NCBI RefSeq assembly: GCF_035084215.1
Contig: NC_090328.1
Location: 127,472,001-127,536,000 of the forward strand
Length of the DNA stretch: 64,000 nt
Origin: Heptranchias perlo
Taxonomy: Eukaryota
Direction of reading: 5' to 3'
Part shown: one piece after another, positions 2,050-26,225 of the stretch
Layout: the number at the start of each line of letters is the position of its first letter
How positions within the stretch are numbered: the stretch's first letter is position 1
The notes under the pieces: generated by a model
What the model saw: the letters and a program-made list of their open reading frames with translations, nothing else
Told to the model about the DNA's origin: nothing
Database searches by the model: none
Position numbers and translations under genes: made by a program

Positions 2050-3180
2050 ACAACTACCAGTGGTGGGGTGAAGGGAGGGGGCATGCTCACGAGGCCAGGG
2101 TCAGAGGAACGGAGGCTTTGCTGGGGGTGAGTTGTATGGAGATATGGAGGGATGACAATGCCATAGAGGGAATTAAAGACAAGGACAAGAATTTTAAATC
2201 TGAAGAATTAGGAGACTGTGAACCAATGTAGGTGAGCAAGGATGGGGGGAGGGGGTGGTGGTGTTGTGCAAGCAGGGCTTGCTGCAGGATAGGGCATGAA
2301 CAGAAGATTCTGGGCCAGCTAGAGTTTATGGGGGTGGAGAGCAAGAAACCGGCATGGAGAGCATTGGAATGATCAAGTCTGGACATTACGAAGGAATAGA
2401 GGAGGGATTCAACAGTGGATGGCTGAGGTAGGGGCAGAGGCAGGCGATATTATGGAGTTAGAAGTAGGCGGACCTTGTGATGAAAAGTATATGGAGGCGG
2501 AAGCTCAGCTTGGAGTTGAATAGGATGCCAAGGTTGCAAACAGTCTGGTTCAGTCTGAGACAGTAGCCAGAGAAGGTAATATATTCAGTGGCAAAGGAGC
2601 AGATTTTTTGACGGCGGTGAAGATGATGGTTTTAGTCTTCCAATGTTTAGCTGAAGAAAGTTAAAACTCATCCAAAACTGGATAATAGGTAAGCAGTCTG
2701 ATACCATAAAGGCAGTGGAGGGGTCGAAAGAAGTGGTGGAGAGGTAGAGCTGGATGTCATTGGCGTACATCTGGAAGATGACCCCATCCCTGTGGACGAT
2801 GGATCCTTGGGGACTCTAGAGGTGGGAAAAAAAAAAACTGTTGCTAGGTGGACACTTGCTTCAGTTGGATAGGTAAGAATGGAACCAAGCAAGGATAATC
2901 CTATAAGGACAGTGTGGTCAACCATGTTGAAGGCTGCAGAGATGTTGAGAAGCACAACGAAGGATAATGCACAATCATCATAGCCACAAATAACATAATT
3001 TGTGATTTTGGTTAGGGCTGTTGGAGGGATTCAAATAGGGAGCTGCAGGAGAACTAGGCATGAAGTTTGGAGGCAACAATACATTCAAGGACCTTGGCGA
3101 GGAAGGAAGATGGAGCAGTAGTTATCGGGGAAAGAAGGGTCGAAGGTGAGGTTTTTGAGAAGAAAGATCAGATAATGGGA
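2050..3180 (-). mobile_element. Degraded L2-clade LINE (RT region)
   Basis: YA(N)DIQLYLST and LL.ISAAF..VDH motifs, SRLDHSNALHAG tail region; frameshifted. Confidence 0.8.
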
Positions 3181-3769
3181 AAAAAAATAATGTTCCTCTT
3201 TGCTAAAATCAAGTGTTCAAATTCATGTCTACAAATTAAAGGGTTACCTATAACATTCAATGGATTAACTTGGAAACTTTGAAATCTACAGTATTATGGG
3301 TTTCATGCAAATCAGACATTGGAGCTTGCAGGACTAACTACATAAAGCACACTAACTGATATTTTGTGACACAAAACTAGAACATTTGTTTATTGTAAGC
3401 TCACTAGTTGAACTTTCATTCATATTTACTATATTACTAGCAGATTTTCCACAGCGTTGTTCACTGTGAGTTACAGGACACGCTTTTCTGTAACAATGGG
3501 GATGTTATGCCATCTAATGCACAATGTATTATCAGGGCCACTGGGATGTCTCGAGACCAAAGAGACTGAAATGTGTATGGACGTCTGCTGGCCTGGAGGA
3601 GGTGCCGGATCCCCTCACCCCACCCCCAGAAAGGGAACAAGGCTACCTTTAGCAGCCTCCTGTCGATAGTCCTTCTACCAAGTAACAGCACCGAAAAGAG
3701 ATTAACTGGTCATTCATCACATTACACTTTGTGGGACCTTAAGTGCATAAAATGGGTGCCTCCGGCTTA

Positions 3770-3925
3770 ATGTTGTATCCAAAGGACGGCACCTCAACAA
3801 TACAGCACTCATATTTGCATTGATGCATCAGCCTAGATTCATGTGCTCACATCTTGATCCAGGGGCTTCAACTCACAACCTTCTGACTCAAGAGATGAGA
3901 ATGCCATCAAGTGAACTAGATACTG
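3770..3925 (-). mobile_element. tRNA-derived SINE head fragment (DeuSINE/SacSINE-like)
   Basis: Reverse strand reads 'gagtcagaaggttgtgagttgaagcccc...gagcacatgaatctaggctga', a B-box-like head. Confidence 0.55.
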
Positions 3926-4072
3926 GCCAAAGGGATTGTTAAAATGTATCACTCAATTGGAAAGATCATGTGATCATATTTCACCAACTTTTTTGTATAG
4001 TTACAGGAATATATAGATAGATTTAGTTACTGCAAATACAAAACCAACAATTTTAAAAATTAAAGACTGTAC

Positions 4073-4332
4073 CTCAAATTATAAAAATCATATTTAATTG
4101 AATATTTGGGAGCACTATAGTTCATGTATAAAAATCCCAGATGTTTATTCTTCCGAATTATTGAAACAATTTTTAAAGGATCTTGTATGTTTTCCTGGAT
4201 GACATCATCTGCTGAACTATATGCCAGTTCTGGAGGTAAAAGCACTCTCATGCATGAACTTGTCCTACACAAAGCAGTACTGGGTTGTTTCAGTGGTGGT
4301 GGAGATGGAATTGTACATGTATCCAGTTCAAT
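4073..4332 (-). CDS. DNAH6: DNAH6 coding exon 3
   Basis: IELDTCTIPSPPPLK...DDVIQENIQDPLKIVSIIRKNKHLGFLYM...YDFYNL. Acceptor AG 4334-4333, donor GT 4072-4071, 260 nt (phase 0 to 2). Confidence 0.9.
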
Positions 4333-5965
4333 CTGTGTAATATAAATAATATGTTTAAAATAAAAATAGTTCCATACAATAGCATACTGAATATAAAGGC
4401 ATAAGTCTCATTTTGTCTATCTTTAGGTCATCCTCTAAAGTTATATTTTTGACAAAGGAGCAAATTGCTCCTAACTTAGAAATTCTATTTAAGTTTTACA
4501 CTGAAGCTGCAATCAATAAAGCAAATCAAATATTTGGATACATCCTGAGGGCAACTCACTACAAGTTGAAATAAGCTATTCTAGTACAGATCACTGACGA
4601 GGTCACATTATATGCAGTTCTGGGTACCTCACCTTGACACTGATTCATTGGAGAGGGTTCAAAGGATAGCAACAAGGCCAACCTCTGGTGCTTAGGACTG
4701 AACGTTATCAGGACATCTTGCTTTCATTGCAGGAAAGATGGGGGAGGGGGAAACATGATCAAGGTCTTTAAATGTTGAGAAACACAGAGGATGTAGATGT
4801 AAACAGGCTATTTATGTGCCTTATCAGCATTGACCACTTCCCAAAATCAAAAATAAAATGATGGGGGTGGGAGAGGAAGGATGAATATACCGATTCTGGA
4901 TGAATGTCTTTGCAGCTCAGAACATTCCTTAGGGTCCACTAAAGTTCACAATAGGATAAATTATACTTAGTTTATGGAAGGAGTAGGCTCCACAGGCCAA
5001 ATGAATTTTCTCATTCCATAGGTTCTGAAGTTGCTAGTTATTTTTATTTTCTTCTTCAAAGAAACTTCCTGTCAGTTGCTTTTGTCTTTATTTTGAGTCA
5101 CATTTCCATTTTACAGACTGCACTATTTGCCAGAGATTTATATGCCCATAATATTTATACCTAGAAATTTCTGTCTGTTCTCTGCTAGAACTCCCAGTCC
5201 CCTTTCTTTTTACAGTACTTTTTGCTTGTTCCATGCTCCAGTGCTAAAACGCTAACTAATAATGCAAAACGATGATACTCTGAAGTGATTTTGTTCAAAG
5301 TACTGACGAGTTACATTTGCTCCCTAAATAGCTTCTTTGTCATATATATCTCCAAAACACACATTCACAATACTGAATTATATAATGAATATATTATTTT
5401 AAATAAAGGTTCACATTATCCTTTTAACATCCAAATGAATATCAAGTCTATTACCTTCATCATTCAGGGATTTGTTTCTCAGATATCCAGAAGAAAATAA
5501 ATCATTGATAAAAGTAGGGAATAAGAAAGTTCAACAATTTGCTTCTGAAGGCCCAATCATTATATATTGAAAAACAATTATTTTGCTATAATCAACCATA
5601 AGCTACTATTGAAAAAGATTAAATTATATATATTTTTTTTTTACAGAGCAGTGCAATGGCACTGAACCATGAAATAAGGACAAACATAGGTTAAATTCCT
5701 AGTCTGTCCAGTTCCCAAGAAGTTCTAATTGGTGGCTTCACTGTTTTCCCAAAAGAGTAACGAAAAGTTGGAGGGGAGAGTAATGCATGTGTGGTCCTCA
5801 GCATCTCTTGGCAGATCATGTAGGTGCATTACAGCAATATAAAAGCAGGACAACTGCCTAATCTCCTGACAGCAGAGATGTTGAGGACAGGTACACCAAA
5901 AGTAGGCTAACTTACAAGAAAAAAAACAGAATAAAAAGTACAGATTTTTACAACTTTGCTCAAAC

Positions 5966-6154
5966 CTGTTTCTTTGTTAAGTCAATTGGGAGTTCTGGTA
6001 GCCGTTGGAAAGGTGCGGTTAAGTCTATTGAACCGGGTCGTACGCTCTTTTTTGGTACACTGGGTGGAAGCCATCCTGCAGATAGCAATTGCTCTCTATT
6101 CTTTTCGTAGATGTACTCTGGCTGTTTGTGATCTTGGTACATCTTCAGTATAGG
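5966..6154 (-). CDS. DNAH6: DNAH6 coding exon 2
   Basis: PILKMYQDHKQPEYIYEKNREQLLSAG matches the DNAH6 PVLKVYQDHKQPEY motif. 189 nt, ctgcag acceptor, CAG|gtttga donor. Confidence 0.9.
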
Positions 6155-6327
6155 CTGCAGATACACAATAGTGGCATTTAGAGAATTTTCTCTAATATAA
6201 TAAGAAATGCACTAACACAGAATTAATATGGAAGCAGCTACAGTACATTAATAAGTAGATTGTATGGAATCTTATTGATGTGTAAACCATAAAAGTATAA
6301 TACTCCGAATAGTTTAGAATTACCTTT

Positions 6328-6710
6328 AAAGAATTTGCATTTATATAGCAACTTTCACGATCTCAGGACATGCCAAAGCATTTCACAGCTAATGAGTCAC
6401 TTTTGTTTTGTAGGCAAACAGAGCAGACAATTTCTACATAGCTGGGTCCCACATATCGCAGTGAGATAATTAACCAGTTATTCTGTTTTTGGAGGTGTTG
6501 ACTGAGGGATAAATGTTGGTTAAGACCGGGAGAACGCATCTGCTCTTCTACAAATAGTGCCGTGGGATTTTTTAATGTCAATCTGTATAGGCAGATGAGG
6601 CCTCCGTTTGGCGACTCATCCGAAAGATAGTATTTCAAAAACTGAAGCACTACCTCAGTACCACAATGAAGTGTCACCCTAGATTATGCGCTCAAGTCCC
6701 AGAAGTGGGG
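6328..6710 (-). mobile_element. DeuSINE (SacSINE1/AmnSINE1-like)
   Basis: L2-derived tail 'ttgcatttatatagc...tttcacagc' plus Deu-domain-like core 'aaatagtgccgtgggat...catccgaaaga'. Confidence 0.65.
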
Positions 6711-8651
6711 ACCTAATGCAAAGTTCTGTACTATTGTTCAGATATGTACTGTTGCAAGTAATTAATTAAAAACAAATGTAAACTAAATTAAAATATATCA
6801 AATACTTTCTGTTAATCTCTTACCAGAACACTTGGCATTACCAAATTGTAGTTTAGGTGTATAATATTTATGTAATACCGTATACATTTAACTCTCAATT
6901 CATTAGCATCTTTACTATCCATTTTCACTTACTTCATTCTGCCACGTCTGGCACATAATAGTAAAAACTAAATTTTCTTAGGAAAAATTAATCTTTATAT
7001 ATGTACATACACTTATACCTCTCAAGACTGCAATTGTTCAAGGAGTGAAATTTAAATTCAAACAGCGAGGTAGATTGCAAATTTAATTAAGCAATTTAAA
7101 AAGCCAATAGAATACATAGCCAAAACAAGTCTATGCTGAGACTTAATAATGAACTGATCAGACCTCACGGAATATCTTCAGTAATTCTGATTGTGAAGAA
7201 GATCCCAAAAGGTATGAGCTATAAAAAAGGATTAAAGAAGCTAAAGCTCTGTAGCCTAGAGAAAAAAGGTTATCTCCTTGAGATATAGAAATCCCATTTG
7301 GCAAAGCCCGTAAATAAATGTTTAATGCGCTCATACTAAATTCCCGTGGCACTATTTTTACGTGGGTATTAACTTATTTATTTTACCTCTGTAAAAATAG
7401 CACACACAGGAATGTACTACAAGTGCATTAAACATTCGCACATTAACTTTGCAAATTGGACTGTCTACCCTATGGAGCATTAATTGGCAGAGATAAGATC
7501 AACCCAGAAAATGACTTTAAAATCAGACAAATAAAACAAGGAATCATAAGTTTAAATTAGTAAAAAGCAAATTTAACACATCTTAGAAAAAATATCTTCA
7601 CTCAAAAGGTGATCAATATTTGAAATGATATACCAAATAAGATAGTGGAATCAAAGACAGTAGGGGAGTTCAAGATGTAGTTGTTTGATAGGCTGAATGA
7701 GTTGAAATATTAGAGGGATGAGCTTGACAACCCAGATGGCCTGAAAAAAAGTTATATCTTTTTATAATGTTCTTATATAGAGCAGTGTTTACTTTTAAAA
7801 GCAAGAAACATCAAAATTAGTCATATTTTTATAACAAAATAAGTCACTCACTCCAAATGAGTGAGGCTTAATAGGCCTGAGTATTACAAGAGCTAGTATT
7901 TCAAAAACATCCAATTCAACTTCTGCTTTGTAACTCACTGCTAGCCATCTATGGTCTTACACACAATCATTGTGTTGTAGTTTTCAATTTTTACTGAGCT
8001 GGATTCGACATTACATGTTAATATTTCATTAATATTACTTGTATTAGTTTAGTAACTACCTTTCCTTTTCTTTCATTTAAGGGCCAATTTTACTAAGGAA
8101 CACTACCAGCAAGGAGCATCTTCTGTCAGCCACAAGAATCCAGAAGTCGCAGACATGCTGAATGCCTATGATTTCTTGATATGTGCAGCTGGCAGATAAG
8201 TCTCCCTGCCGGTAAATAAGTAATTTAGTGTCCATTGATGAGCAACACACAATTCATATAATTACATATAATCCTGATTTAAGCAAATTTCTGAAAACGT
8301 CCTAATACATGCACGTTGCAGTACTGTCTCCCCTATGTGCCATCAATGAGGTAGCTGTCCAATTGTAAATCACAAGTCAGTTACAATCATTGTACCAGAT
8401 CCTAGATGGCCAGATCACATTCTATTTATAACACTTATAGCAGATTAGAAACTATTTACATGAATTTTAATGAATAATTTTTAACGTTATTTTGCTCAAG
8501 AAAACCAGATGATTTGTGATGTCAATTTCTCATTTTAATGTGCATCAGTGATGTTACTCCGCAGGAATGACTTTTTTATAAATAAAAGATAGCTAGACAG
8601 AGTTCCCTTCGGCCTTAACACATTAATGATATATAATGCATTAGCACTTAC

Positions 8652-8894
8652 CAATGGTTGCAGTTTGAGGGGCTCTTCTCTTGCTAGTCTTTTTTGCCGT
8701 GCCTTTGTGTTTCGGGTAAACTTCAAAGCAAGAGGATTTGGAGTTGCCTGTTTTGGTGCTGTGGAGATTAGTCTAGCTTGCAGCTGCGAAGGATCAATAT
8801 CTGTATTTGGAGCGGTAAGGCTCTCCCCAAATTTCCTTTTTTTCCTTTTTGTATGTTGTGACAAACATGCTGATGTATCAGGGGGCTGCAACAT
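8652..8894 (-). CDS. DNAH6: DNAH6 first coding exon (ATG at 8894; exon begins 8900)
   Basis: MLQPPD...KFTRNTKARQKRLAREEPLKLQPL resembles human FRHITKAQEKTRKRQQPIKLEPL. Donor TTG|gtaagt, acceptor tttttgcag at 8902-8901. Confidence 0.8.
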
Positions 8895-9944
8895 TTTGCA
8901 CTGCAAAAATAAATTTTAAAACATTGTAAAATAAAGCCAACTGCACGCAATATCACAAAATTAAAAGGTTGTATGCTTTCTTTTCTTTTTTTAATGAAAA
9001 TGTCTTCATGAGGGAAATGTTTTAAATATATAATTATTTTGTTTTACACTCAGTACAATTAGGGGTTTGATTTTCTCATGCAGCTGGTCCCGCCTCCTTC
9101 TAAGCAGAAATGGAGTAGTGAAAAGCAATAAAAAGCCTATTGGTTTTGTCATAGCTTCACATTGCATGGAAATTGAAACCACACTGCAAGTGGGCTGAAA
9201 CATCCAAGTACAGTCTGCTCAACCTTATGCTCATTCAAATTGATGGCACGAGCTTACAAGCGGGGGCACGTCTCTACCTATAAACAACAAGCAAAACTGA
9301 AGTAGTTACAACAACCTATTCAACACTTTAATGAAATTATCACCTTGTAATAACTCCCAATTTATTTTTTATGATACACACTGTAAAGTTCAAGCAGGTA
9401 TTTTATTTTTTATTCTGGTTTGATTTTGTCCAGCTGCAGCAAGACATTATTGGCTAAGACACTATACGTAAAATCAATGAGTGATGAAGGACACATTTTG
9501 GCTGAAAATTGTGAAATAATCTTTGCAAGTTTATGAATTATCATTTTCCATGAAATGCCAAAGAGTGCGGTGTACACTAGCTAAATTCCCACGATGTTTC
9601 TCACGGATTTGGAGCTCTGCAGCAGGGTTTGTGATGTTTAGCTGCTAAGGTGAAGCTGTGCTCATCCCACTAAAGCCACCATTATTCAAGTAGTCCATGT
9701 GGGATGTGGTCCAAATAGGAATAGCTGGGAGAAAACTTAGAGACTAATTGCAGTTGCTGAGGGAAGTTTCCGTAGATTGGTAAATGTTTGTAAATCTCCA
9801 GCTTCCCCCTTAGGGTGAGGGTGGGTTACCAGTATCAGAAGAAACCATCAGGAAATGACTGGTTCAAGTGTCAGTAAGAAAGCCAATCAAGTACAAAAAA
9901 GGAGATTCAGGATAAATCTTGAGGATGGATAATAAATTGGATGG

Positions 9945-11105
9945 TGTAGAAGACCATGGGTTCTTGATAGAAGAGTCATGTCGGGATGGGGAGGACGTAC
10001 CAAAAGGGGTGCCCAAGGGATCACTTTTGGGACCACAATTGTTTCCAATTAACATCAATAACTTGGGAGGCAATTTTAACCGATTCCTCCTGGAGGAAAA
10101 CTGACTGGATTGATTGAAATAAATGGAAAGTAAAATTGGGTGGGGTATAAAACAGGCAGCCAACCCATTTCGGTCAGTTTCTCGCCAGGTGGGCTAGGTT
10201 AAAATTACCCCTATAGATTCAAAAACTCAATGCAAATTGGTCAATTTTTCATTGAGTGTTACAAACTAGGAGAGGCAGGCAGTGGATTTGGAAGAGTCTG
10301 CTCAGAAATCACAAAATGAGTTGGACAAAATTGTAAATGGGAAGAACAATGACAAATGAAATTTAATGTGGAAAAATGTAAAGTACTGCACGTAGAAAGG
10401 AAAAACAGGCAGCACGTGTACGTCATGAATGGTGTTAAACTAGCTTAATGAAGTTGAAAGCAACCTAGGAATCATAGTAGACGAGTTACTCAACCTGTCC
10501 AACCACTGCAGAGCAACAATCAATAAAGCAAATAGAATGCTAAACTATATAGCCAAAATAACAGAATACAAGTCAAGGGAAGTCATGATTAAAACATGTA
10601 GTGCTCTAGGCAGACTGCCTTAAGTACTGTGTCTATTCCTGGTCACTGAGGCACAAGGAAGACATTCAAGTGCTGGAGGCAATACAGAGAAGAGCCACAA
10701 GGTTGATCCCCAGTGTCAGAGGTCGGAGTTATGATGAAAAACTGGAGAAACTTGGGCTTTTCAGTTTTGAAAGGAGACATTTGAGAAATGATCTTATAGA
10801 GATACATAAAAGTTAACAGTATGGAAATCTGGAAAATTACTGTAAACTGAATTACAAGAGTAGGATATGCAAGCACAAATTAGTAAATGGCAAATTTAGA
10901 GCCGATAGCAAAATGTTCTTTTTCACACAAAGAATGATCAGTACATGGATTGGATTCTGGATGGAGTAGTGGAGGCACATAACCTAGAATAATTTCAGAA
11001 ATAACTAGATGCTGCAATGGGAGACGTTGGGGTCTTTCGGGATGGATAAACTAAAACAGATGAATTGGCCTTCCTCATCCATAACTATTTTGTGATCTTG
11101 TGAAA
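9945..11105 (+). mobile_element. Degraded CR1 LINE 3' part
   Basis: GVPKGSLLGPQLF, FNVEKCKVLH remnants, ttgtgatc tail. Confidence 0.75.
10067..10211. mobile_element. Harbinger-type MITE inserted in CR1
   Basis: Inverted ends gaggcaattttaacc / ggttaaaattacccc interrupt the CR1 RT. Confidence 0.65.
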
Positions 11106-11924
11106 TCTGACACATTCTTCGCATTTGTGACAAACTTCAACTCTCTGCTGAGGAAGAAAATACATTTTCTCAAACAATTTTTTTTTGAATTCTAAAAAAA
11201 AGAAAACACTTGTGGTCAGATTATCCATCTACCTCTCATTTTTTGTCTGTGTTTCTCTATCTCAGATAGATTCTCATTTGAAGTAAAAATTAAATGTGAA
11301 ACTTTACTGAATAAAACCATTAAAAATGAATTTTCCAGACGGTTTTCAAATCATTTCGAAAAACATAAGAGCTGAGAAATAGGGCTCGATTTTCGGACGT
11401 CTGAGCAGATGCGTTCGTGGCCGGGGGGGGGGGTTCCGAAAATTGGGGATTCCCGGGGTGGGTCCGGAGCCCGGCTCCAACCGCCCACTTCCGGGTTCCC
11501 CAGTGACACGCTCAGATGCGCGTGCAGCCCCCGCATGTGGGACTCCCACCAGCAATTAAAGTCGGCGGGATCCCACTTAAAGCAATTATTTTGATACTTC
11601 AGGTCGTTTGCAGACCTGATTTGTAGGATATTTTAGGAGGTGGGATTTTCATCTAAACTCAGCGTGTTTCCCATACTGGGGGAAAACACTCCCAGCTGAA
11701 GTGGACATGTTGCAGCCACCAGCCTGTGTGAGCTGCAAAGGTCCATTTGACAGGTGGGGAGGGGAGACCCTCACTCATTGCAGGAGCCACCCTGTCACTT
11801 TGAACAAAGTTTGGCCTGCACCACCCTCCTCCTAACACTAAAATTCACAAACTTGCAACCTCAACCCCGTTGTGCAGACACATTTACCTAACCTTGCGGA
11901 CCCCCTCAAACACACATCTTCCGG

Positions 11925-12360
11925 ATGGGGGCTGCCGTAGCTGCAGTCATGACCTCCTCGGAGGACGAACAGCATCACCAGCCTCGCCGTCCACCTCTGA
12001 CACGTGGAGCTCCACAACACAGTGCTGTGACACATCCACCTGTACAGCAGGAGGGAGGGCAACTGCAGAGAGAAGCATCGCAGAAGGCATTACCCTCGCC
12101 ACAGGGTCTACAGACCGAGGCTCAGCTTCCTGGGCCTCTCGGAGCAGCAGTGCACACGGAGGCTCAGAGTCACTCAACATATAGTCATGGACATCTGCAG
12201 CCTCCTTCATGCCAAGCTGCTCCCAGCTGGCCCGAGCACCATCTTCTTACCTGTCGCTGTCAAAGTCACCACTGCCCTCAACAACTTCTCCTCCGCATCC
12301 TTCGAGTGTGCCACCGGGAACATCGCCGGCATCTCTCAGTCGTCTGCACAAAAGAGCCAT
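11925..12360 (+). pseudogene. Truncated, frameshifted Harbinger transposase (N-terminus only, DDE core deleted)
   Basis: MTSSEDEQHHQPRRPP and LLPAGPSTIFLPVAVKVTTALN align to the inner transposase, then the sequence jumps to the 3'UTR homolog. Confidence 0.85.
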
Positions 12361-12654
12361 GCAAATACACCTACACCCATTCTGCAGTGACACAATGGGC
12401 TCGAATTTAGCAGGCCTGCGGGTTCCCAGCGGGTGGTCCTCCGGGAGCGTGGAAAACGCGGACGGCTAATCATGTGCGTCCCCCACGCGATCGCGGGATA
12501 ATTGGACCCATTAAGCCCAGCTTCCGGGTTCTGCGCTCCCCAGCTGCGTGCCGGCCGGCTGCGCATGCGCAGTACCGTCGACGCGATGTAGGAGCTCCAG
12601 TTAAAGGGGCAGTCTCCCAAAGCCCCTCCTGCTACAAGCAAGCGGTTTGAGACG

Positions 12655-14494
12655 ATGGCTCAGCAAAGGGGAAAGGCTGCGCCCCGTTTTTCAGATCTGG
12701 CACTGCAGCTGATGCTGGAGGGCGTGAGGAGGAGGAGGGAAACACTCTTCCCAGAAGATGGGCGCAAGTTCCCTGCCGCCGCAACCAGGAAGGCATGGGC
12801 AGAGGTGGCGGCGGAGGTGAGCAGCAGGGGCAACACCCCAAGGACTTGGGAGCAGTGCCGCAAGCGCTTCAATGACCTGACTAGGTCTGGCAAGGTGAGT
12901 ACACCAACGCACCCTCCCACATCCCGTCCCCACCATCACGCCAAGCAGATCACAACCCCCTCCTGCACAGCCACCACTGCGCTCCATCAGCAATCCTCAC
13001 AGCCACTCATTCACCATCCTCGCCGTGCACGCAAGTACCCACCGTCCCTGACCCCACCCGAACACTACCACACACCCCAATCCCCATGCAATGGGATGGG
13101 CACGTGGCTCACGCTTCCTCCCATCCGTTCCGCGCCACGCTCAACCCAACCACACCGATGCTCGATGCGTCTCACGATGCAAGACGCACCCACTCACACA
13201 TCTGTGTTTTGCCTTCACAGAAGAAGAGAAGCAAGAACAATAGGGAAAGGGCACGCACCGGAGGTGGGCCGCCGCAAGTGGTGGAGCTCACCGACGCAGA
13301 GGTGGAGGCGCTCGACCTCGCCCGCACGCGACATTGCCTGTCGGTGGCCGATGGCGAGTGTGTCGCTGCCGAAACGGCCGGTAAGGGAAAGCTGACACTC
13401 AACACCCATGATCGCGAGTTACCGTCTCATCACCTGCCATCAGGCGCACTGTCAAGTTGGTCCACATGCCTCAAAGTGCCCTCTGTTCTCTTGCAGGTCC
13501 GTCTTTGGGTCAAGCGAGCGTGGAGGGCGATTCCTCAGAGGACATGGCGGTCTCTGAGGGTGCATCGTCACATCAGAGCCAACCATCCACCAGCGCAGAG
13601 ACACGCACCTCGGTGGGTCCCCCTCGCCAACTAGTTGGGGTAGCACTTGGTGAGTCACTGCGCACGAGTGAGCATGAGCAGACCCTGGTGGCAGGGGCAG
13701 CCGCGGAGGGTCCGCGACGGAGGGAGCACTCATCTCCAGGCTCTGCTCAGCCGGACCCAGATGCTGAACCCAGGGGGCCACCAGTGAAAAGGAGAGTCGT
13801 CGAGGGCCACCAGCTAATTGCTGAGGTACTGGCAGAGGTGCCGCGCGCATTGTCCACAATAGCGCAGGCGATGGAGGAGTCCAACTCCTGCATGTGGGCA
13901 TTGGTGGCGCAGGCACAGGAGGGTACCGGCGACACAGTGTCGCGGGTAGGTGCGGGACTGTCTGCGGTGGAGGACAGGCTGGCCTCCCTCGAGCGTCACG
14001 CACAGCTCCAGATCGAGTCCATGCAGGCCCTGACAACGTCTGTACGGATTCAGGGTGAGCAACATTCCGACGCCACCAACAGGCTGAGGGATACACTAGG
14101 GGTGGCCTTGCAAGGCCTCACACATGCCATCCAAACTGCCGTCCAGCAGGGTGGAAGGGGTGATGTGGGCCGAGGCCAAGAGAGGGATGATGGTGACCGG
14201 GGACATGGAAGCGGGGACGCCTCTCAAGGCGTCCCCACGTCCCGCCCGTCGCCCACCTCTCAACCAGTACCCGCAATGGTGCCTCCTCTCCAGGTGGCCG
14301 AGTCTGCCCCTGCCCCGGTGCAGGAGGAGCAGTCTGTGGAGGTGCCGTCACGGGCACCGAAACCCAGGGGCCGTCCGCCAAAAGCATCTCCCCGGTCAAG
14401 GCAAGAAGACGAGCAACCTGCCACTACCTCTGCTGGAGCCACAGGGGTAGCACCACGTAGGGGTTCCCGGAGAAGAATTGCAAAGGCCTTATAA
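12655..14494 (+). CDS. Harbinger Myb/SANT-like DNA-binding protein, exons 12655-12894, 13221-13380, 13497-14494 (465 aa)
   Basis: RFSDLALQLMLEGV...AWAEVAAEV...RTWEQCRKRFNDL trihelix/Myb motif. GT-AG junctions join in frame (1398 nt). Coiled-coil-like middle and basic C-terminus. Confidence 0.9.
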
Positions 14495-14791
14495 TCACAA
14501 AGGGAATACACCAGGGTGTTTATTATTTTGTACTTTGTTTCTTATATAATGTCACATTCCAGATATTAAATAGTCTATTCTCACCACTCCTGCCACCTCT
14601 CGTCCATTCTTCCGCGGCTTGTGCAATAGTTGCGTTCCGTGGAGGCCATCATGACGGCGAACACCTGCTGCCACCCATTGGGCACACTGCTGTGGGTGCA
14701 GGATTACTGGCAGCACTCTTCAGTGGAGGGGGCTGGTATGGCCGCTCGCATGTGCAGGTGAGGAGATGCGAGCGCCTCGCAGTGTGTGACT

Positions 14792-16057
14792 CTAGGAGAA
14801 CCGTTGACGTATGAGTGCCTCCCTGGCCCGGCGACCATCCCGGTGAGTCGCGGCTCGGCGCATGGGTCGTCCAACATCCTCTGGCGCGTCCTCCTCCTCC
14901 TCCTCCGCCTCCTCCTCCTCCTCCTCCTCCTCCTCCGCCTCCTCCTCCTCGCCCTCGCCTTCCTCAATGTGGGTGGCGGGTGTGGATGGGGCCTCCTCCA
15001 GCGGCACCCCTCCCTGTTGGGCCATGTTGTGCAGGGCACAGCAGACAACTATCATTAGTCCCACTCTGAATGGTGTGTATTGGAGCGCTCCCCCAGAACG
15101 ATCAAGGCACCTGAAGCGCATCTTGAGAAGCCCTATGGTCTGCTCAATTGTAGACCTGGTAGCAGTGTGGCTGTCATTGTACCGACGCTCCGGCTCGGTG
15201 ATGGGGTTCCTCAGAGGTGTCATGAGCCACGTGTGGAGGGGATACCCCTTGTCGCCGAGGAGCCAGCCGTTGCCGGCGTTGGGTGCCTGCAGGATGAGCG
15301 GGACAGCGGACTCCCTGAGGACGAAGGCATCGTGGCAGCTGCCGGGGTATCTGGCGCACACGTGTAGGAATCTCTGGCGGTGGTCACAGATGAGCTGGGT
15401 GTTCATGGAGTGATACCCCTTCCTGTTGATGAACAGCCCTGGCTCGTGCGGAGGTGCCCGTATTGCGATGTGGGTGCAGTCGATTACACCCTGCACCCGT
15501 GGGAAGCCGGCCATGGCATGGAATCCAACCGCCCTCTCCATCTGGCTGCGCTCGTCCATGGCGAAGTTGATGTAGTGGGAGGCCCTGCGGAACAACCCAT
15601 CGGTGACCTGCCTTATGCACTTGTGTGCAGAGGACTGACAGACCCCGGTGATGTCCCCGGTGGCACCCTGGAAGGAACCGGATGCGAAGAAGTTGAGGAC
15701 AGTGGTGACTTTGACGGCGACAGGTAAGAAGATGCTGCTTGGTCCATCAGGGAGCAGCTCGTCGTTAAGGAGGCTGCAGATGTCGGCGACTACCTGGCGA
15801 TTGACTCTGAGCCGACGTATGCACTGCTCCTCGGAGAGGTCCATGAAGCTGAGCCTCGCTCTGTACACCCTGTGCGGAGGGTAGTGCCTCCTGCGACGCA
15901 TCTCTCTCTGCGGTTGCCCTCCCTCCTGCTGTGCAGGTGGGTGTGCCGCAGCACCGTGTTGGGGGGCCCCACCTCTCCGAGGCGGACGGCGTGGACTGCG
16001 AGGCTGCTGGGGCTGGTTATCCTGTTCGTCCTCCGACGATGTCAACGCACCACCCAT
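14792..16057 (-). CDS. Harbinger DDE transposase (HARBI1-like family), ~421 aa from MGGALTSSEDEQ
   Basis: Uninterrupted ORF with GVIDCTHI, NRKGYHSMN, YPGSCHDAFVL, LLGDKGYP, YNDSHTATRSTIEQTIGLLKMRFRCL, CCALHN. Confidence 0.95.
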   Translation of the reverse strand: MGGALTSSEDEQDNQPQQPRSPRRPPRRGGAPQHGAAAHPPAQQEGGQPQREMRRRRHYPPHRVYRARLSFMDLSEEQCIRRLRVNRQVVADICSLLNDELLPDGPSSIFLPVAVKVTTVLNFFASGSFQGATGDITGVCQSSAHKCIRQVTDGLFRRASHYINFAMDERSQMERAVGFHAMAGFPRVQGVIDCTHIAIRAPPHEPGLFINRKGYHSMNTQLICDHRQRFLHVCARYPGSCHDAFVLRESAVPLILQAPNAGNGWLLGDKGYPLHTWLMTPLRNPITEPERRYNDSHTATRSTIEQTIGLLKMRFRCLDRSGGALQYTPFRVGLMIVVCCALHNMAQQGGVPLEEAPSTPATHIEEGEGEEEEAEEEEEEEEEAEEEEEDAPEDVGRPMRRAATHRDGRRAREALIRQRFS

Positions 16058-16780
16058 CTGGCAGGTGTTGGTCTGAGGGGTTGTGCAGGGTAGGTGGGTG
16101 GGTCCTCGGACTGGGGCTGCGGTTTCGTGTTGGTCTGTCCTCTGGCTTGGCGGGGGTTGGTGGAGGGCAGGGGTTGCCCTATGTGACGCAGTGGCCTCCT
16201 GGGTGGGTGAGGGCTCTCCCCCGTGGAGCGCACCTTGGCACCTGCCACAGGCTGCTGGCTGCAACACGCCTGGTTTGAAAGGTACTGTTTCCCCCAGTGT
16301 GGGAAACTGACTGCGTTGAACCTAAAATCCCACACTTCCTCTTTTGACAGCTGCTTCAGCTCATTAACTGACCACAACGAGCAAGTTAAGTACTCTCAAG
16401 TGGAACCCCGCTGGCTTTAATTGCCTGCGGGATTCCCACCAGCGCGACTTGCGCGCGCAGCCCCGCATGTCAGCGCGGTACCCGGAAGTGGCCGGGATTT
16501 CGTCGCGATCCGGTCACATGACCGGAGATCGGGATTTTCGGGGCCCCCCCCGCTGGAAACCCGCAGGTAACCCGACCCTAAAATCGAGCCCAATGGGTGG
16601 CATCAGTTGTGGGTCTTCATGGTGATCCTCAGGAAAGGGCATTATTGCACAAACCAGACAAGATTTTCAAAGACGTGGCAGTAGTGGTGATAAAAAATTT
16701 TTATGATTTTTTGCAAAACAAACAAAAGTAAATCAAAAACATGACATTTTGTCTTACACCCTTGTGCATCCCCTTTGTGC

Positions 16781-18618
16781 TCACAAAACCTTCACGTTAC
16801 GTTTACGGGAACCCCTACCTGCTGCAACCCCTGTGGCTTCAGTCGAGGTAGTGGCAGGTTGCTTTTGTCCATGCCTTGACCGATGAGATGCTATGCACGG
16901 ACGCCCTCTGGGTTTCGGTATCCGTGAGGGCCCCTCCAAAGACTGCTCCACCTGCACCTGTGCAGGGGCAAACTCGGCCACCTGGAGAAGAGGGAGGCAT
17001 TGCGGTTACTGGTTGAGGAGGGGGCAACGGGTGAGAGGTCGGAGCGCTTTTGAGTGGCGTCCCCACTTCCATGTCCCCTTTCACTATTATCCCTCTCCTG
17101 GCCCAGGACCTATCACTCCTTCCACCCTGCTGGACGACAGTTTGAAGGACTTGTGTGAAGCCTTGGAAGGCCAGTTGTGAGGTATCTGTCAGCCTGTTTA
17201 AGGCGGCAGAATGTTGCTCACCCTGAATCCGAACGGCCGTTGTCAGGGCCTGAATGGACTCATTGTTGAGCCGTGCTTGAAGCTCGATGGAGGCTAGCCT
17301 TTCCTCCATTGCAGACATTCCCGCACCTACCCGCGACACTATCTCAGAGATGCCTTCACGTCCCTGTGACAGTATTCCACTCATGCAGGAGTTGGACTCC
17401 TCCATCCTCTGCGCGATTGTGGAGAGTGCGCGTGGCAACTGTTCCAGTACCTCGGCGATGTGCTGCAAGCCCTCGATGACTCTCCTTTTCACAGTTGGCC
17501 CCCAGGGTTCAGCATCTGGGTCCAACTGAGCACAGCCTGGAGAAGAGTGCTCCCACCGACGCGGACTCTCCACGGCTGCCCCTGCCACCAGGGTCTGCTC
17601 GTGCTCACTTGTGCATGGTGACTCACCATGTGCAAGCCCAACTAAGTGAGGACGGGGACCCACCGAGGTGTGTGTATCTGCGCTGGTAGATGGCTGGCTC
17701 AGATGTGACGATGCCCCCTCAGAGGCCGGCAGGTCCTCTGAGGAATCACCCTCCACAGTCATGACGGTCGCAGATGGCCCTGCAAGAGAACAGAAAGCAA
17801 TATTAAGCATGTGGACAGATGTTGAGGTGCTGCAGATGCTAGTGATGCTAAGATCATTCGCTATCATGAGTGCGGAGTGTTAGATTTCTGTCACCAGCCA
17901 ATTGTGCACTCCCAGTCTCGGCATCCACCACAGATAGGCACGCCAGCATCCGGCTTATTTCGAGAGCCTGCTGCTCCGCATCTGTTAGGACCACCTGGTA
18001 TGGCGGGCCCCCTCCGTCCTTGCCCTCTCCCGGGCGTTCTGGCATCTCTTCTCCTATCAAGGCAAAACACAGAGGCGAGATTGAGTGATGGTTGCATGGT
18101 GACCCACTGCATGCATTGATGTAGGTGGAGGTGAGCGTTACAGAGATGCATGGGAGGGTGAATGTGCAACATAGCCATGATATTGTATGAGGATTGGGTT
18201 GCGTGGTTGTGTTCAAACGGGAACTGGGCGGTGAGTAAGTGCAGGCAAGGTGAGGATGATGGTTGAGTGGATGTGAGGAGTGATGCAAGAGCGTTGTGGT
18301 GGCAGAGCAGAAGGAGTTGTGTGATGGTGGAGGTGACGTGGAAGACGGAGTGTGGGAGAATGCGTAAGTATACTCACTTTGGCTGACCTGGTTAGGTCAT
18401 TAAATCGCTTCCTGCACTGGACCCAGGTTCTGGACACATTGATGTTGCTGCTGACCTCCTCAGCCACCTCCAGCCTGGCCTTCTTGGTGGCAGAGGGAGG
18501 CCACCTCCTCCCATCTGATGGATAAAAAAATTTCCCTCCTCCTCCTCACCCCATCGAGCAGCACCTGGAGTGAGGAGTCAGAGAACCTTGGAGCAGCCTT
18601 GCCTCTGGCCTGCTCCAT
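16781..18618 (-). pseudogene. Frameshifted Myb/SANT gene of the outer Harbinger (exons ~18618-18378, 18053-17895, 17779-16781)
   Basis: MEQARGKAAPRFSDSSLQVLLDGVRRRRE, RTWVQCRKRFNDLTRSAK. Same intron positions as the inner copy, frameshifts in each exon. Confidence 0.85.
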
Positions 18619-18899
18619 GATCCAAAATTGGTTCTTTGCTGCAGGAGGAGCATTGGAGGACTTCCCCTTTAAATCGGGCTCCTCCTGCTGACAGCCTGTG
18701 ACGCGGGTACGCAGTGCACCCGCTGTGTAGGTCTGGAACGGGAAACCTGGAAGCCATGGTAAGTGCCTTCAATTAGGCTGCGATCACGTGCGGGGCACCC
18801 TGAATTCACTGGGCGCGTTACCCACGCACCCAGTCGACCCCCCGCTGCCAACCCGCCTCCCTCCTAATATCGAGCCCATAGTGTTACTTCATAAAGACA

Positions 18900-19430
18900 G
18901 TCATAGGAACATAGGAATTACCAGACAACAAAAAGACCAAAGCCCATCGAGTTTTCCTTCTCCCATCCTAGTAGTTGCATGATACAACGATAATGGAGTT
19001 GTTGACTAGTTATAGCAATCAACCTCTATCAATTCATCTACAACAGACCTAGACATGAGGTGAGGAAACCCCCCCAGTGGTGGAAAACTTTGAGAACCAT
19101 AGGTCTAAAGTCACCTGTTCCTCCCAAGCATGTTACATTTACCGTATGTCATGTCTCAAATTACTCATATACTATATCCCAAAATATTATTTTCTGAAAG
19201 AAATCTGTGCCAGCACAGGCACAATGGGCTGAATGGCCTCCTTCTGTGCTGTATCATTCTGTGAGTCTATGATCTAATTTGCATTTGAATGAATCATGAC
19301 TATCTCCTTCCACCGTCTTCCTAAGGAGCTTGTTCCATTGATTTATCATGCGCTCACCAAAATAATGTTTCCGCAGATTAGTTTTGAATTTACCCCGTTT
19401 CAAGCGCAGGCCGTGTCCTCTGGTTCCAAG
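18900..19430 (-). mobile_element. CR1 3' end fragment
   Basis: (ataggaac)n tail reversed, RT C-terminal remnant near 19300-19430. Confidence 0.55.
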
Positions 19431-19835: not shown

Positions 19836-21340
19836 ATGTGCCAGACTCCCCAATTTGGTGTCACCAGCAAATTTCAATACTGCTCATTTAATTACGGAGT
19901 CCAGATCATTTATCTACATAATACACTGGCATCTACCCGACAATGTGGAAAATTGCCCAGGCATGTCCTGTCAACAAAAAGCAGGACAAATCCAATCCGG
20001 CCAATTACTGCCCCATCAGTCTACTCTCAATCATCAGCAAAGTGATGGAAGGTGTCGTCGACAATGCTATCAAGCAGCAATGAATCACCAATAACCTGCT
20101 CACCGATGCTCAGTTTGGGTTCCGCCAGGACCACTCGGCTCCAGACCTCATTACAGCCTTGGTCCAAACATGGACAAAAGAGCTGAATTCCAGAGGTGAG
20201 GTGAGAGTGACTGCCCTTGACACCAAGGCAGCATGTGACCATGTGTGGCACCAAGGAGCCCTAGTAAAACTGAAGTCAATGGGAATCAGGGGGAAAACTC
20301 TCCAGTGGAGTCACAAAGGAAGATGGTAGTGGCTGTTGGAGACCAATCATCTAAGCCCCAGGACATTGCTGCAGGAGTTCCTCAGGGCAGTGTCCTCGGC
20401 CCAACCATCTTCAGCTGCTTCATCAATGACCTTCCCTCCATCATAAGGTCAGAAATGGGGATGTTCGCTGATGATTGCACAGTGTTCAGTTCACTCGCAA
20501 CCCCTCAAATAATGAAGCAGTCCGTGCCTGCCTGCAGCAAAACCTGGACAACATCCAGGCTTGGGCTGATAAGTGGCAAGCAGCATTCGCGTCAGACAAG
20601 TGCCAGGTAATGACCATCTCCAACAAGAGAGTGTCTAACCACCTCCCCTTGTCATTCAACGGCATTACCATCGCCGAATCCCTCACCATCAACATCCTGG
20701 GGTCACCACTGACCAAAAACTTAACTGGACCAGCCATATAAATACTGTGGCTACAAGAGCAGGTCAGAGGCTGGGTATTCTGCGGCAAGTGACTCACCTC
20801 CTGACTTCCCAAAGCCTTTCCACCATCTACAAAGCACGAGTCTCCACTTGCCTGGATGAGTGCAGCTCCAACAACACTCAAGAAGCTCAACACCATCCAG
20901 GACAAAGCAACCCGCTTGATTGGCACCCCATTCACCACCCTAAACATTCACTCCCTTCACCACCGGCGCACCATGGCTGTAGTGTGTACCATCCACAGGA
21001 GGCACTGCAGCAACTCGCCAAGGCTTCTTCGACAGCACCTCCCAAACCCACAACCTCTACCACCCAGAAGGACAAGGGCAGCAGGCACATGGGAACAACA
21101 CCACCTGCACGTTCCCCTCCAAGTCACACACCATCCCAACTTGGAAATATATCGCTGTTCCTTCATTGTCGCTGGGTCAAAATCCTGGAACTCCTAACAC
21201 TGTGGGAGAACCTTCATCACATGGACTGCAGCAGTTCAAGAAGGAGGCTCTCCACCACCTTCTCAAAGGCAATTAGGGATGGGCAATAAATGCTGGCCTT
21301 GCCAGCGACACCCACATCCCATGAACAAATAGAAAAAAAA
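19836..21340 (+). mobile_element. 5'-truncated CR1/L2-group LINE (RT)
   Basis: NYCPISLLS, GVPQGSVLGPTIFSCFINDL, MFADDCTV, A-rich 3' end; frameshifted. Confidence 0.85.
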
Positions 21341-21710
21341 TAAGAATAATTCCAACACAAACCCTTGTGGAGCACCAATCGTCACATCTTTCCAATCTGA
21401 GAAACTTCATTTTATCCCTACACTTTGCTTCTGACCTCTAACTAAATCTCTATCCATGTGGTGACATTTCCCTTAATTCCATTGCCATCCATATTAGGGA
21501 ATTGGTGAGGCAGGATTCTGAATTTGTCAGCAGTCGTACACACATAATCAGCCAAATCAAATTTCCTAGGCTCTTGGGGATAACCCCAATCAGTTACTCC
21601 TGGGAGAGTCTCTGTGACTGATAAAATGTAGCTATGATTTTCAGGAATTTCCCAGTGGCTGAATGAGCTGATTTTATCAGCACACTGCTGTTAACTAAAG
21701 AGTCCTAATC

Positions 21711-23770
21711 CATAGGAACATAGAAACAGGGGTAGGCCATTCAGCCCTTTCAGCCTGTTCCGCCATTCAATGAGATCGTGGCTGATCTGTATCCTAACTC
21801 CATCCACCCACTTTGACTCCATATCCTTTAACATTTTTGGCTAGGAGTCCTAGACTCTTCCACCAGCAGAAAAAGTTTCTCTCTCTCTCTACCCGATCAA
21901 TTCCTTTCAAAATCCTAAAAAACTCAATCAAGTTCCCCTTAACCTTCTTTATTCCTGGGAATACAAGCCTAGTCTGTGTAATCTCTCCTCATAATCTAAC
22001 CCTTGGAGCCCTGGTAACATTCTGGTGAATCTGCAATGCACTCTTTCAATGGCTAAAATATCCTTTCTAAGGTGTAGTGCCCAGAACTGTACACTGTACT
22101 CCAGATGTTGTCTAAGCAGGGCTTTGTATGGCTGTGGCAAAACATCTTAGCCTTTATAATTAGAAAGCTAGGATATAAAGGGGAACATTCCATTAGTTGT
22201 TTTGATTATTTTTTGTACCTGACTACTACATTTTAGTGATCTATGTACATGGACCCTTAAGTCTTTTTGGACTTCCATTGTTCCTAGCTTTTCACCATTT
22301 AAAAAATACTCAGATCTATCGTTTTTTGATCCAAAATGGATGACCTCACACTTACCTGTGTTGGAATCCATCTGTCACAGTTTTGCCCACTCACTTAATC
22401 TATCAACGTCTCTTTGTAACTTCATGCTCACGTTTACATTATGCCATTAATCTTTGTGTCATCGACAAACTTGGATATATGGCTCTCTATTGTGTTACCC
22501 AAGTCATTAATAAATAGTGAATAGTTGATGCCCCAGCAGACCCTTGAGGGACACCAGTAGTCACTTCCTTCCAATTCGAGTACATACCCATCATCCCTGC
22601 TCTCTACCTTCTACCGCCTAACCAATCTCCTAACCAGGTCAATAATTTGCCTTCAATTCCACAAGCTTTAATTTTACCCAACAGTCTCATATGTGGAACC
22701 TTATCGAATGCCTTCTGGAAGTCCATATAAACTACATCCATAGATATTCCCCTGTCTACTACTTTAGTTACTTCCTCAAAAATTTCAATTGGGTTTGTTA
22801 GACATGACCTACCCTTTACAAATCCATGTTGGCTCTCTCTAATCAGCTCAAATTTCTCTAAGTGCTCAGTCACGCGATCCTTAATTATAGATTCCAATAA
22901 CTTCCCCACAACAAATGTTAGACTAAGATTTATAATTTCCTGGTTTCTCTTTCTCACCCTTCTTGAACAATGGAGTTGCATTTGCAATTTTCCAATCTAA
23001 AAGGGACAATTCCTGAATCAAGAGGGTTTTGGAAGATTATGGCTAAAGCATCCGCAATTTCCTCACCTACTTCCTTTAAAACCCTGGAGTGGAAACCGTC
23101 AGATCCTGGAAATATCAGCCTTTAGTGCCATTATTTTTTTTAATACTGTTTTCTTCCTTATGTCAACTTTAATGAGTTCCAGTCCTTGATTCACTATTAG
23201 TTTCCCTGGAATGTGGGGTATATTATCCTCTCCCTCTACTGAGAAGACTAACACAAGGTCATTATTCAACAAGTCTGCCATTTTCTTACTTTCATTTGCA
23301 ATATTACCCACATCTGTTTTTAAAGAGCCCACATTACCCTTGACTACCCTTTTTCTTCTAATATAATCGTAAAACTTTTTGTGTTAATCTTGATATCCCT
23401 CACAAGCTTCTTTTTGCATTCCCTTTTTGCTGCTCTTACTATCTTTTTGTCTTCCTTTGCTGTTCTTTACCAGTCCCCTGGATCTACACTATTCTTTGCA
23501 CTTTTGTATGCTCTTTTCTTTTGTTTTATGTTATCTCTCACCTCTTTTGTCCACCATGGCTGTTCTATTTGGCAAGTACTGGTCCAGTATTAAGCTAAAT
23601 TCTTTTTTGAACACCTCCCACTGTTCATCAGTAGTTTTACCCGATTACAATTTTGACCAGTCTCTGTCTCATCCCATTAAAGTTAGCCTTACCAAAATCT
23701 AGAATCTTAGTAACCGTGTTAAGTTTCCCCTTTTCAAACCTAACATTGAATTCGATCATATCCACCACTT
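21711..23770 (-). mobile_element. 5'-truncated CR1 LINE
   Basis: SQHGFVKGRSCLTN, YMDFQKAFDKVPH, LEYSVQFWA; (gttcctat)-type tail at 21711-21730. Confidence 0.9.
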
Positions 23771-25040: not shown

Positions 25041-25315
25041 GTGACCTCCCACAGAGCAAAATAGGAACCCCACCGGTGGACTGGAGACTCAGGAGTGATA
25101 GGTTCCCGTGGGTCAGACACCCGCTGACCGAAGAAATGTGCCCCCGCCCCCCGCGAGCACTTTGACTGACGCTATGAGGCGGGCTCGGATACCCACCTGA
25201 GGTCAGGGTCAGAGTCGGGCACCGCCGATTCACACGGACCTCCTGTTTCTGCGCTGTGTTAAAGGCTGATTTAAAGTTTACTCACAACGTACCGCAGTCT
25301 GCCTCGGCCTGGCGT

Positions 25316-26225
25316 TAGCCCCCCCCCGGGTCGGCTCTCTCTCGGTTTAGCCCCCCCCCGGGTCGGCTCTCTCTCGGTTTAGCCCCCCCCCGGGTCGGCC
25401 CTCTCTCGGTTTAGCCCCCCCCCCGGGTCGGCTCTCTCTCGGTTTAGCCCCCCCCCGGGTCGGCTCTCTCTCGGTTTAGCCCCCCCCCGGGTCGGCTCTC
25501 TCTCGGTTTAGCCCCCCCCCGGGTCGGCTCTCTCTCGGTTTAGCCCCCCCCCCGGGTCGGCTCTCTCTCGGTTTAGCCCCCCCCCCGGGTCGGCTCTCTC
25601 TCGGTTTAGCCCCCCCCCGGGTCGGCTCTCTCTCGGTTTAGCCCCCCCCCCGGGTCGGCCCTCTCTCGGTTTAGCCCCCCCCCCGGGTCGGCTCCTCTCT
25701 CGGTTTAGCCCCCCCCCCGGGTCGGCCCTCTCTCGGTTTAGCCCCCCCCCGGGTCGGCTCTCTCTCGGTTTAGCCCCCCCCCCGGGTCGGCTCTCTCTCG
25801 GTTTAGCCCCCCCCCCGGGTCGGCCCTCTCTCGGTTTAGCCCCCCCCCCCCGGGTCGGCCCTCTCTCGGTTTAGCCCCCCCCCGGTCGGCCCTCTCTCGG
25901 TTTAGCCCCCCCCCCCCCGGGTCGGCCCTCTCTCGGTTTAGCCCCCCCCCGGGTCGGCCCTCTCTCGGTTTAGCCCCCCCCGGGTCGGCCCTCTCTCGGT
26001 TTAGCCCCCCCCCCCCCCCCGGGTCGGCCCTCTCTCGGTTTAGCCCCCCCCCCCGGGTCGGCCCTCTCTCGGTTTAGCCCCCCCCCGGTCGGCTCTCTCT
26101 CGGTTTAGCCCCCCCCGGGTCGGCTCTCTCTCGGTTTAGCCCCCCCCGGTCGGCCCTCTCTCGGTTTTACTCCTCTCTCTCTCTCTCGGTTTAGCCCCCC
26201 CCCCCCGGCCGGCTCTCTCTCGGTT
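25316..26225. repeat. C-rich ~31-33-bp minisatellite (~28 copies)
   Basis: Unit TTAG(C)nGGGTCGGCTCTCTCTCGGT with a variable C run. Confidence 0.95.

Follow-up and report, generated by a model that had tools for sequence, protein, structure and literature searches.

Two nested Harbinger elements upstream of the DNAH6 coding region

The window, by which we mean the whole analyzed stretch of 64,000 nucleotides of the Heptranchias perlo genome (contig NC_090328.1, positions 127,472,001 to 127,536,000), contains a two-gene Harbinger DNA transposon of 4,195 bp at 12397-16591, upstream of the coding part of DNAH6. An earlier interpretation made from the letters alone (the sequence-only reading) had described this copy, here called the inner element, as a structurally complete two-gene Harbinger, and its ends, target-site duplication (TSD) and both open frames were indeed found. 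The flanks, unnoticed in that reading, belong to an older sister Harbinger at 11382-18877, here called the outer element. The features of the inner element are as follows.

12397..16591, no strand: inner Harbinger, structurally complete (terminal inverted repeats (TIRs), TSD and two open reading frames (ORFs); contigs skip 4,198 bases, the element plus one TSD copy)
12394..12396, plus strand: left TSD, AAT (a single AAT stands at the homologous site inside the inner element; empty-site joint 12392 to 16591)
12397..12410, plus strand: left TIR, 14 bp (13/14 match to the right TIR)
12411..12570, plus strand: left subterminal region with 8-9-bp motifs recurring at the right end (shared 8-/9-mers at 12415, 12426, 12521 and 12557; observed/expected (o/e) CpG 1.0)
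12655..12894, plus strand: Myb/SANT exon 1, amino acids (aa) 1-80, Myb domain (Pfam Myb_DNA-bind_5, PF13873, E=8.5e-11; 90% identity to P0121)
13221..13380, plus strand: Myb/SANT exon 2 (AG/GT boundaries; gap-free P0121 alignment; an RNA contig of a sister subfamily uses the same donor)
13497..14494, plus strand: Myb/SANT exon 3 and stop (in-frame model; alignment to P0121)
14792..16057, minus strand: DDE transposase ORF, 421 aa, with D193, D269 and E305, and also D243 (Pfam DDE_Tnp_4, E=2e-36; predicted start codon; AlphaFold model)
16400..16577, minus strand: right subterminal region with matching motifs (shared 8-/9-mers)
16578..16591, minus strand: right TIR, 14 bp, partner of the left one (13/14)
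16592..16594, plus strand: right TSD, AAT (read from the sequence)

The inverted ends, which the sequence-only reading gave as near-perfect and 12 bp long, are real, but their length is 14 bp with 13 matching positions; the 3-bp TSD claimed there was recovered as AAT on both sides. A 2-bp duplication with a longer TIR was rejected because the bases directly outside pair inconsistently across the two elements. Scanning the window with the TIR pattern gave only four sites with no more than one mismatch, namely the four ends of the two nested elements, and the other 9 of the 13 matches had three mismatches each, which is chance level. CpG o/e equals 1.0 in both inner ends and 0.68 across the whole inner element, compared with about 0.3 in the flanks. 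Candidate binding sites of the Myb protein are the short motifs that recur in both subterminal regions.

The Myb/SANT and transposase genes

Both genes agreed with their first description. The Myb/SANT model of 465 aa with three in-frame exons has no internal stop and two GT-AG introns of 326 and 116 bases. It aligns without a gap to the 465-aa RefSeq protein P0121 of H. perlo, with 405 of 465 residues identical, and this gap-free alignment lends independent support to the exon boundaries. The transposase, announced as open with all catalytic motifs, contains IDCTH, GDKGY and TIEQ in the ORF running from 16057 to 14792.

The search for transposase homologs found 238 proteins, of which 120 were listed and the top 60 compared. 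The majority residues in these 60 include D193, D243, D269 and E305, with D193, D269 and E305 being the majority residue in 52, 50 and 39 of them, respectively; at columns conserved at 80% or more, the transposase matches 95 of 100. Its AlphaFold model has a mean pLDDT of 83.6. Searching by sequence revealed no solved relative, only five chance matches, and no solved structure with the transposase fold was found by Foldseek at E<=0.001, the top rows being mostly other DDE transposases and integrases. The predicted Myb-transposase complex scored 0.00 in two runs, both made without alignments. A (GAG)n run at 14889-14950 within the gene encodes an acidic tail that, at about 25 residues, exceeds that of the homolog P0001 in length.

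In a tree of 43 chosen database homologs, built without Repbase references, the transposase fell into a starred clade of eight Heptranchias proteins (100/99), nested in a starred clade of 27 cartilaginous-fish proteins (100/97). On this basis the inner family looks vertically inherited within cartilaginous fish. Elsewhere in the comparison, the HARBI1-like groups P0014/P0016/P0032, P0004/P0005, P0012/P0023/P0027 and P0015/P0020 were tight, joined sharks and rays across species and had short branches, which suggests that elasmobranchs may have more than one domesticated Harbinger transposase gene.

The outer element and the order of insertions

The outer element is made up of the following parts.

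11379..11381, plus strand: left TSD, ATA (read from the sequence)
11382..12396, plus strand: left part, with the TIR at 11382 and the 5' third of the transposase gene (11937-12354, frameshifted), up to a catalytic-core deletion of about 900 bp
16595..18877, minus strand: right part, with a frameshifted Myb gene (18618-16784) and the TIR ending at 18877
18878..18880, plus strand: right TSD, ATA (read from the sequence)

Without the inner element and one AAT, the outer element measures 3,298 bp and is 75% identical to the inner one over 3,228 aligned columns. Both of its genes are frameshifted, about 900 bp over the transposase catalytic core are deleted, and its TIRs begin with the same eight bases as the inner TIRs. 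The inner element is inserted in the opposite orientation, at a point homologous to its own region behind the transposase stop, where AAT stands once. The inner/outer dN/dS values (0.18, 0.60 and 0.57) mix selection with the decay of the outer copy and were not used for dating.

Assembled contigs of public runs were compared with the window: X1 (this organism, one individual), X5 and X6 (RNA-containing, one sample) and X9 (organism B). X1 was assigned to this organism because six contigs from the unique flanks, at depths of 30-46, show 0-2 differences, and X5 and X6 were taken to hold RNA because they contain spliced DNAH6 contigs. Contigs of these runs join 12392/12393 to 16591/16592, thus skipping 4,198 bases and leaving one AAT. 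Such joints were seen in X1 in eight contigs (depth 3,685) and one further contig (886), in X9 (depth 30) and in X5 (depth 4). The simplest view is that they come from other outer-family copies that lack the insertion, although an empty allele of the locus would look alike. Since the contigs show an empty paralogous site, both the AAT duplication and the order of events, outer element first and inner element second, are well supported.

Position 12359, directly past the deletion junction, is covered by 112 contigs with a summed depth of 2.3 million, which indicates that the catalytic-core deletion would be common to a large Myb-only family and not private to this locus. This family was likely moved in trans, because its TIRs are kept with the same eight starting bases. 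The outer element itself appears to be part of a very abundant Myb-retaining, transposase-deleted family. Further decayed Harbinger remains lie at 46744-47567 on the minus strand (transposase, 30-46% identity, with stops and frameshifts) and at 53642-53848 on the plus strand (Myb domain, 38% identity).

Copy number, divergence and age

Per contig, the mean depth in X1 was 2,600-14,500 over the 20 positions listed within the inner element, or 66-364 times the single-copy depth of 40; the same arithmetic gave about 500 times for the outer family. We infer that the inner family has hundreds of copies or more, as an order of magnitude only, since summed depth is no copy number. The positions come from the 40 of 424 differences that were listed, and contigs drop rare variants.

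Contigs differed from the inner element by 2.8% in X9 (70/2,492; seven records), 2.6% in X5 (42/1,594; four) and 2.5% in X6 (32/1,259; five), ranging from 0/188 to 13/201 per contig. Of the 20 listed positions, seven (12472, 12519, 13221, 14390, 15057, 16468 and 16518) have a base unlike that of this copy in 99% or more of the depth. These near-private substitutions comprise three CpG decays in the ends, one other non-coding change and three coding changes, all of which alter a residue (Myb 81, Myb 432 and transposase 334). At transposase 334, the residue of this copy occurs in only 1 of 55 aligned homologs. Among variants shared within the family, 4 of 5 in the transposase are synonymous. The CpG-rich ends described in the sequence-only reading stood (o/e 1.0 against 0.3 in the flanks), while its "little visible decay" did not, given that this copy differs from the others and carries CpG decays in its ends.

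Seven changes in 4,195 bp (0.17%) correspond to 1.2-2.4 million generations at 7-14e-10 per generation, and the four non-CpG changes alone to 0.7-1.4 million; the rate and its upper bound are those of the epaulette shark (PMC10587355). The claim of a recent insertion is therefore not supported, as the near-private differences imply a million generations or more at the measured shark rate. The check proposed with it, a search for near-identical copies, showed no such cohort, this copy's own base being nearly absent at the seven positions; a small young cohort may nevertheless exist.

Neutral drift was simulated in 400 runs per setting. Both frames stayed open by chance in 55-86% of runs at 0.2% divergence, 28-76% at 0.5%, 11-53% at 1% and 0.5-19% at 2.5%. 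Because few simulated copies keep both frames at 2.5%, the true private divergence is probably below about 1%, the remainder of the observed 2.5-2.8% being subfamily structure. Intactness as such is weak evidence of youth, since the element was picked for looking intact.

X9 could not serve as an orthologue test: it has 72 records where X1 has 166,446, and every long piece listed for it falls on the repeats. Both Harbinger families occur in it, differing by 0-5%, and so does the empty site of the outer family, at low depth; no long piece of unique flank is listed. Because both families and the outer empty site occur together, the shark-like sequence in X9 is more likely trace shark DNA than a product of horizontal transfer.

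Expression

Harbinger family sequence was present over both genes in the RNA-containing runs X5 and X6. The listed contigs over the Myb gene cross intron 1 unspliced (X5 record 12 and X6 record 18), which is what read-through of many intronic copies, or DNA, would give. One joint in X6 leads from the intron 1 donor into an exon 2 with 21 differing letters that reads like the H. perlo Myb-like protein P0122 there, and thus would be a spliced transcript of a sister subfamily with the same boundaries. No spliced junction of this copy's own subfamily was found among the 15 of 466 joints and the 12 of 223 splice-table rows listed. The search for RNA over the predicted junctions, as the sequence-only reading had proposed, hence gave a split answer: a sister subfamily splices at the intron 1 donor, and the listed joints contain none for this copy. 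In X5 the summed depth was about 104,000-128,000 over the truncated 5' part of the outer transposase versus 400-1,600 over the inner Myb gene, although contig depth cannot rank genes.

The host gene and its surroundings

The host gene is DNAH6, whose minus-strand exons at about 510-776 and 5963-6160 match PDB 8j07_g5 (E=2.5e-38 and 1.3e-8). One further exon provides the context of the insertion.

8652..8900, minus strand: first coding exon of DNAH6 (acceptor at 8901, first in-frame ATG at 8894; spliced RNA contigs in X5 and X6)

RNA contigs in X5 (6,734 nt) and X6 (1,003 nt) have 8652-8903 spliced to 5966-6154 with zero differences. Since the exon holds the acceptor and the first in-frame ATG, and since these contigs are spliced, the nest lies in an intron of the DNAH6 5' untranslated region (5'-UTR), with the outer element 2.5 kb and the inner one 3.5 kb from the acceptor. 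The same contigs carry 158-159 extra 5' bases, to which none of the pieces listed on 5800-19400 corresponds, and the DNAH6 piece extends exactly three bases (CAG) beyond the acceptor. Between 19,400 and 30,500 there are four donors fitting the CAG pattern, of which that at 25197 adjoins a CpG-rich region. We infer that the upstream exon is exon 1 and the host intron is intron 1. The sequence-only reading had named the first intron of DNAH6; the gene and the position 5' of the first coding exon were correct, and the host intron may be intron 1 or a second 5'-UTR intron, depending on this predicted upstream exon.

Farther upstream, at 25315-29285, a CpG-rich promoter-like gap (about 26230-26360) separates two long tandem arrays, one with 28 units of 32 bp and the other with 86 units of 34 bp, the latter having a CpG o/e of about 1.0-1.2. 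The gap contains a motif that we take to resemble an RFX X-box, and the region is likely the DNAH6 promoter region. An exon-like stretch behind an AG acceptor at 30060-30180 on the plus strand possibly belongs to a gene transcribed away from DNAH6. Many LINE reverse-transcriptase-like fragments were also recognized, with translations judged by eye, at 57669-59144 (plus strand), 42247-45884, 35976-36869 and 19923-23759; the longest open stretch is that at 57669-59144, with 492 codons.

Probably a settled copy from a past burst

The inner element is a new shark member of a known Harbinger kind, in a well-preserved and tidy nested insertion. Altogether, these results make it probable that a full-length two-gene Harbinger inserted in reverse into an older, transposase-deleted sister and that it is a settled copy from a past burst, not a fresh insertion. 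By analogy with established Harbinger biology, the Myb protein would bind the element ends and carry the transposase into the nucleus, where the DDE transposase would cut the element out and paste it with a 3-bp stagger. The inner family would have grown to hundreds of copies, and the outer Myb-only family would have been moved in trans by a cognate transposase. This copy may have drifted neutrally since, keeping both frames by luck, and DNAH6 splicing would remove the whole nest. The unaltered proteins of this copy might still transpose, although we rather doubt it.

Several points weigh against a settled copy. Rare variants are lost from contigs and the copy's own base is nearly absent at several positions, so a small, identical young cohort may hide. 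At 2.5% neutral divergence, both frames survive in only 0.5-19% of simulations. One X9 contig is identical over 188/188 positions and one X6 contig over 181/182, and the shared Myb variants are synonymous in only two of five cases. Moreover, the mutation rate is borrowed from another shark, and the copy number comes from contig depth.

The strongest competitor, which we nevertheless consider unlikely, is that the copy came in recently from a small sub-lineage that is still mobile. The seemingly private bases would then be diagnostic changes of that sub-lineage, and this copy would be one of few working sources of transposase. Open frames, which favour a low true divergence, would fit such an origin, as would the match at 95 of 100 well-conserved transposase columns, the CpG o/e of 1.0 at the ends and the family sequence in two RNA-containing runs; besides, at several positions 13-40% of the depth shares this copy's base, so subfamilies exist. 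It is harder to reconcile with the three near-private coding changes, all of which alter a residue, including the one at transposase 334 found in a single homolog of 55. CpG decays make up three of the seven near-private changes, a pattern that a methylated, resting copy would show, and the listed Myb RNA contigs run unspliced through intron 1, which fits intronic read-through.

We regard as less probable still a more far-reaching proposal, in which a lineage specific to sharks follows an A/T-rich target rule of its own (AAT, ATA) and is still mobile, this copy transposes unaltered and related transposases also move the large Myb-only family. If it were true, there would be a vertebrate Harbinger working without reconstruction.

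It is very improbable that the copy was kept by the host through early domestication of one or both genes, in the manner of HARBI1 or NAIF1. Both frames are open, vertebrates have domesticated Harbinger genes repeatedly (PMC9392472), and among sharks and rays some HARBI1-like proteins have the appearance of conserved orthologues; yet the TIRs and TSD are intact, many related copies exist, the element is nested in a dead repeat, and the near-private coding changes are nonsynonymous in all three cases. We give least credence to an origin of the nest as an assembly artefact or through local inverted duplication: no contig among the rows listed bridges either inner junction at the locus, but a 719-base contig joins the outer left end to unique DNA with zero differences, other copies have an empty site with a single AAT, and a local inverted duplication was rejected on the 75% identity of the two elements, each with its own TIR pair and separate TSD.

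A settled copy is of interest in its own right. An old copy, too, is evidence of large Harbinger families in sharks, and it cautions that where mutation is slow, as in shark genomes, open frames and CpG-rich ends say little about youth. Should the natural copy work, it would add to the vertebrate transposons a two-component system whose target rule is atypical, and its transposase would represent a class without a solved structure.

Classification and comparison with known systems

In the broad sense, the inner element is a PIF/Harbinger transposon. It has a Harbinger/HARBI1-type DDE transposase with the catalytic triad, a separate Myb/SANT gene, TIRs of 14 bp with 13 matching and a 3-bp TSD, the empty paralogous site skipping 4,195+3 bases. 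Harbinger TIRs have been given as 25-50 bp long (PMC9179366), longer than those of the inner element, and a range of 5-1042 bp given elsewhere (PMC4482050) includes its 14 bp. The published Myb-bearing groups follow the rules TWA, CWG and C|TNA|G, and Pangu, which has no Myb gene, follows ANT (Han et al. 2015, PMC4482050). With AAT (ATT on the other strand) and ATA (TAT), based on two insertions only, the nested pair lies outside the narrow PIF/Harbinger group with its TWA duplication. The CWG duplication of NuwaI is absent, although the element does agree with NuwaI in the GGG with which its TIRs start and in having two ORFs, and the C|TNA|G target of NuwaII is absent as well. The ANT duplication of Pangu fits the inner AAT but not the outer ATA, and the second ORF, which in Pangu has no known domain, is Myb/SANT here. 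The two sites thus fit no published Myb-bearing subgroup, which, with two sites, is a lead only, and we place the element in no subgroup. Nor does it resemble the domesticated HARBI1/NAIF1/MSANTD-type genes, which are single-copy, have no TIRs or TSD and occupy a conserved locus, as it has TIRs, a TSD and many related copies.

A 2022 survey found no Harbinger in the elephant shark and called for a check of other cartilaginous fish (PMC9179366); many such proteins are already present in RefSeq under the name HARBI1. No paper describing a shark Harbinger family was found by title or abstract opening, with Repbase, subscription journals and supplements outside the search, and the literature search, which did not extend to subscription papers, gave no report of an unreconstructed vertebrate Harbinger moving in cells. 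Close relatives come from H. perlo itself: the Myb-like P0121 and P0122 are 87% and 83% identical to the Myb model, and P0002, a putative nuclease HARBI1 that is frameshifted or truncated after about residue 250, is 78% identical to the transposase over 275 aligned residues. All three are annotated as host genes and not as a transposon family.

The zebrafish Harbinger3_DR duplicates CWG, where the shark elements have AAT and ATA. Harbinger3_DR and Harbinger3N_DR (Sinzelle et al. 2008) share with the inner element the Myb-like and DDE genes, short TIRs and a 3-bp duplication. Harbinger mobility requires both proteins: the Myb-like one attaches to the element ends and to the N-terminus of the transposase, which it takes into the nucleus; 3 bp are duplicated upon insertion, and excision is mostly clean (PMC2836001, PMC9392472). 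Harbinger3_DR was, however, rebuilt from a consensus and moved in human cells (PMC2836001, PMC9392472), whereas here we deal with a natural copy known from its sequence. The NuwaI/NuwaII and PIF/Harbinger groups likewise have two ORFs with Myb/SANT, TIRs starting with GG/GGG and a length of about 4.1-4.7 kb, but differ in their CWG, C|TNA|G and TWA duplications (PMC4482050).

Large expressed Harbinger families are known from newt and teleosts (PMC5741667, PMC9179366). Harbinger-Snek of sea kraits is a naturally occurring vertebrate family that includes intact two-gene copies and whose coding regions are covered by RNA; with 269 apparently intact copies in the single genome of L. colubrina, it makes the rarity implied by the sequence-only reading an overstatement (PMC8437027). 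It also has single-ORF deletion variants, including 452 DNA-binding-only ones, and it was acquired by horizontal transfer 15-25 My ago (PMC8437027), whereas the shark family looks vertically inherited. Harbinger-1M_cIno of Caenorhabditis inopinata parallels the outer family as we understand it, in that derivatives retaining only the DNA-binding gene multiplied while transposase came in trans. There, a new insertion was caught and a single locus keeps the DDE gene (PMC13668399), whereas in H. perlo the transposase-bearing copies appear to be numerous.

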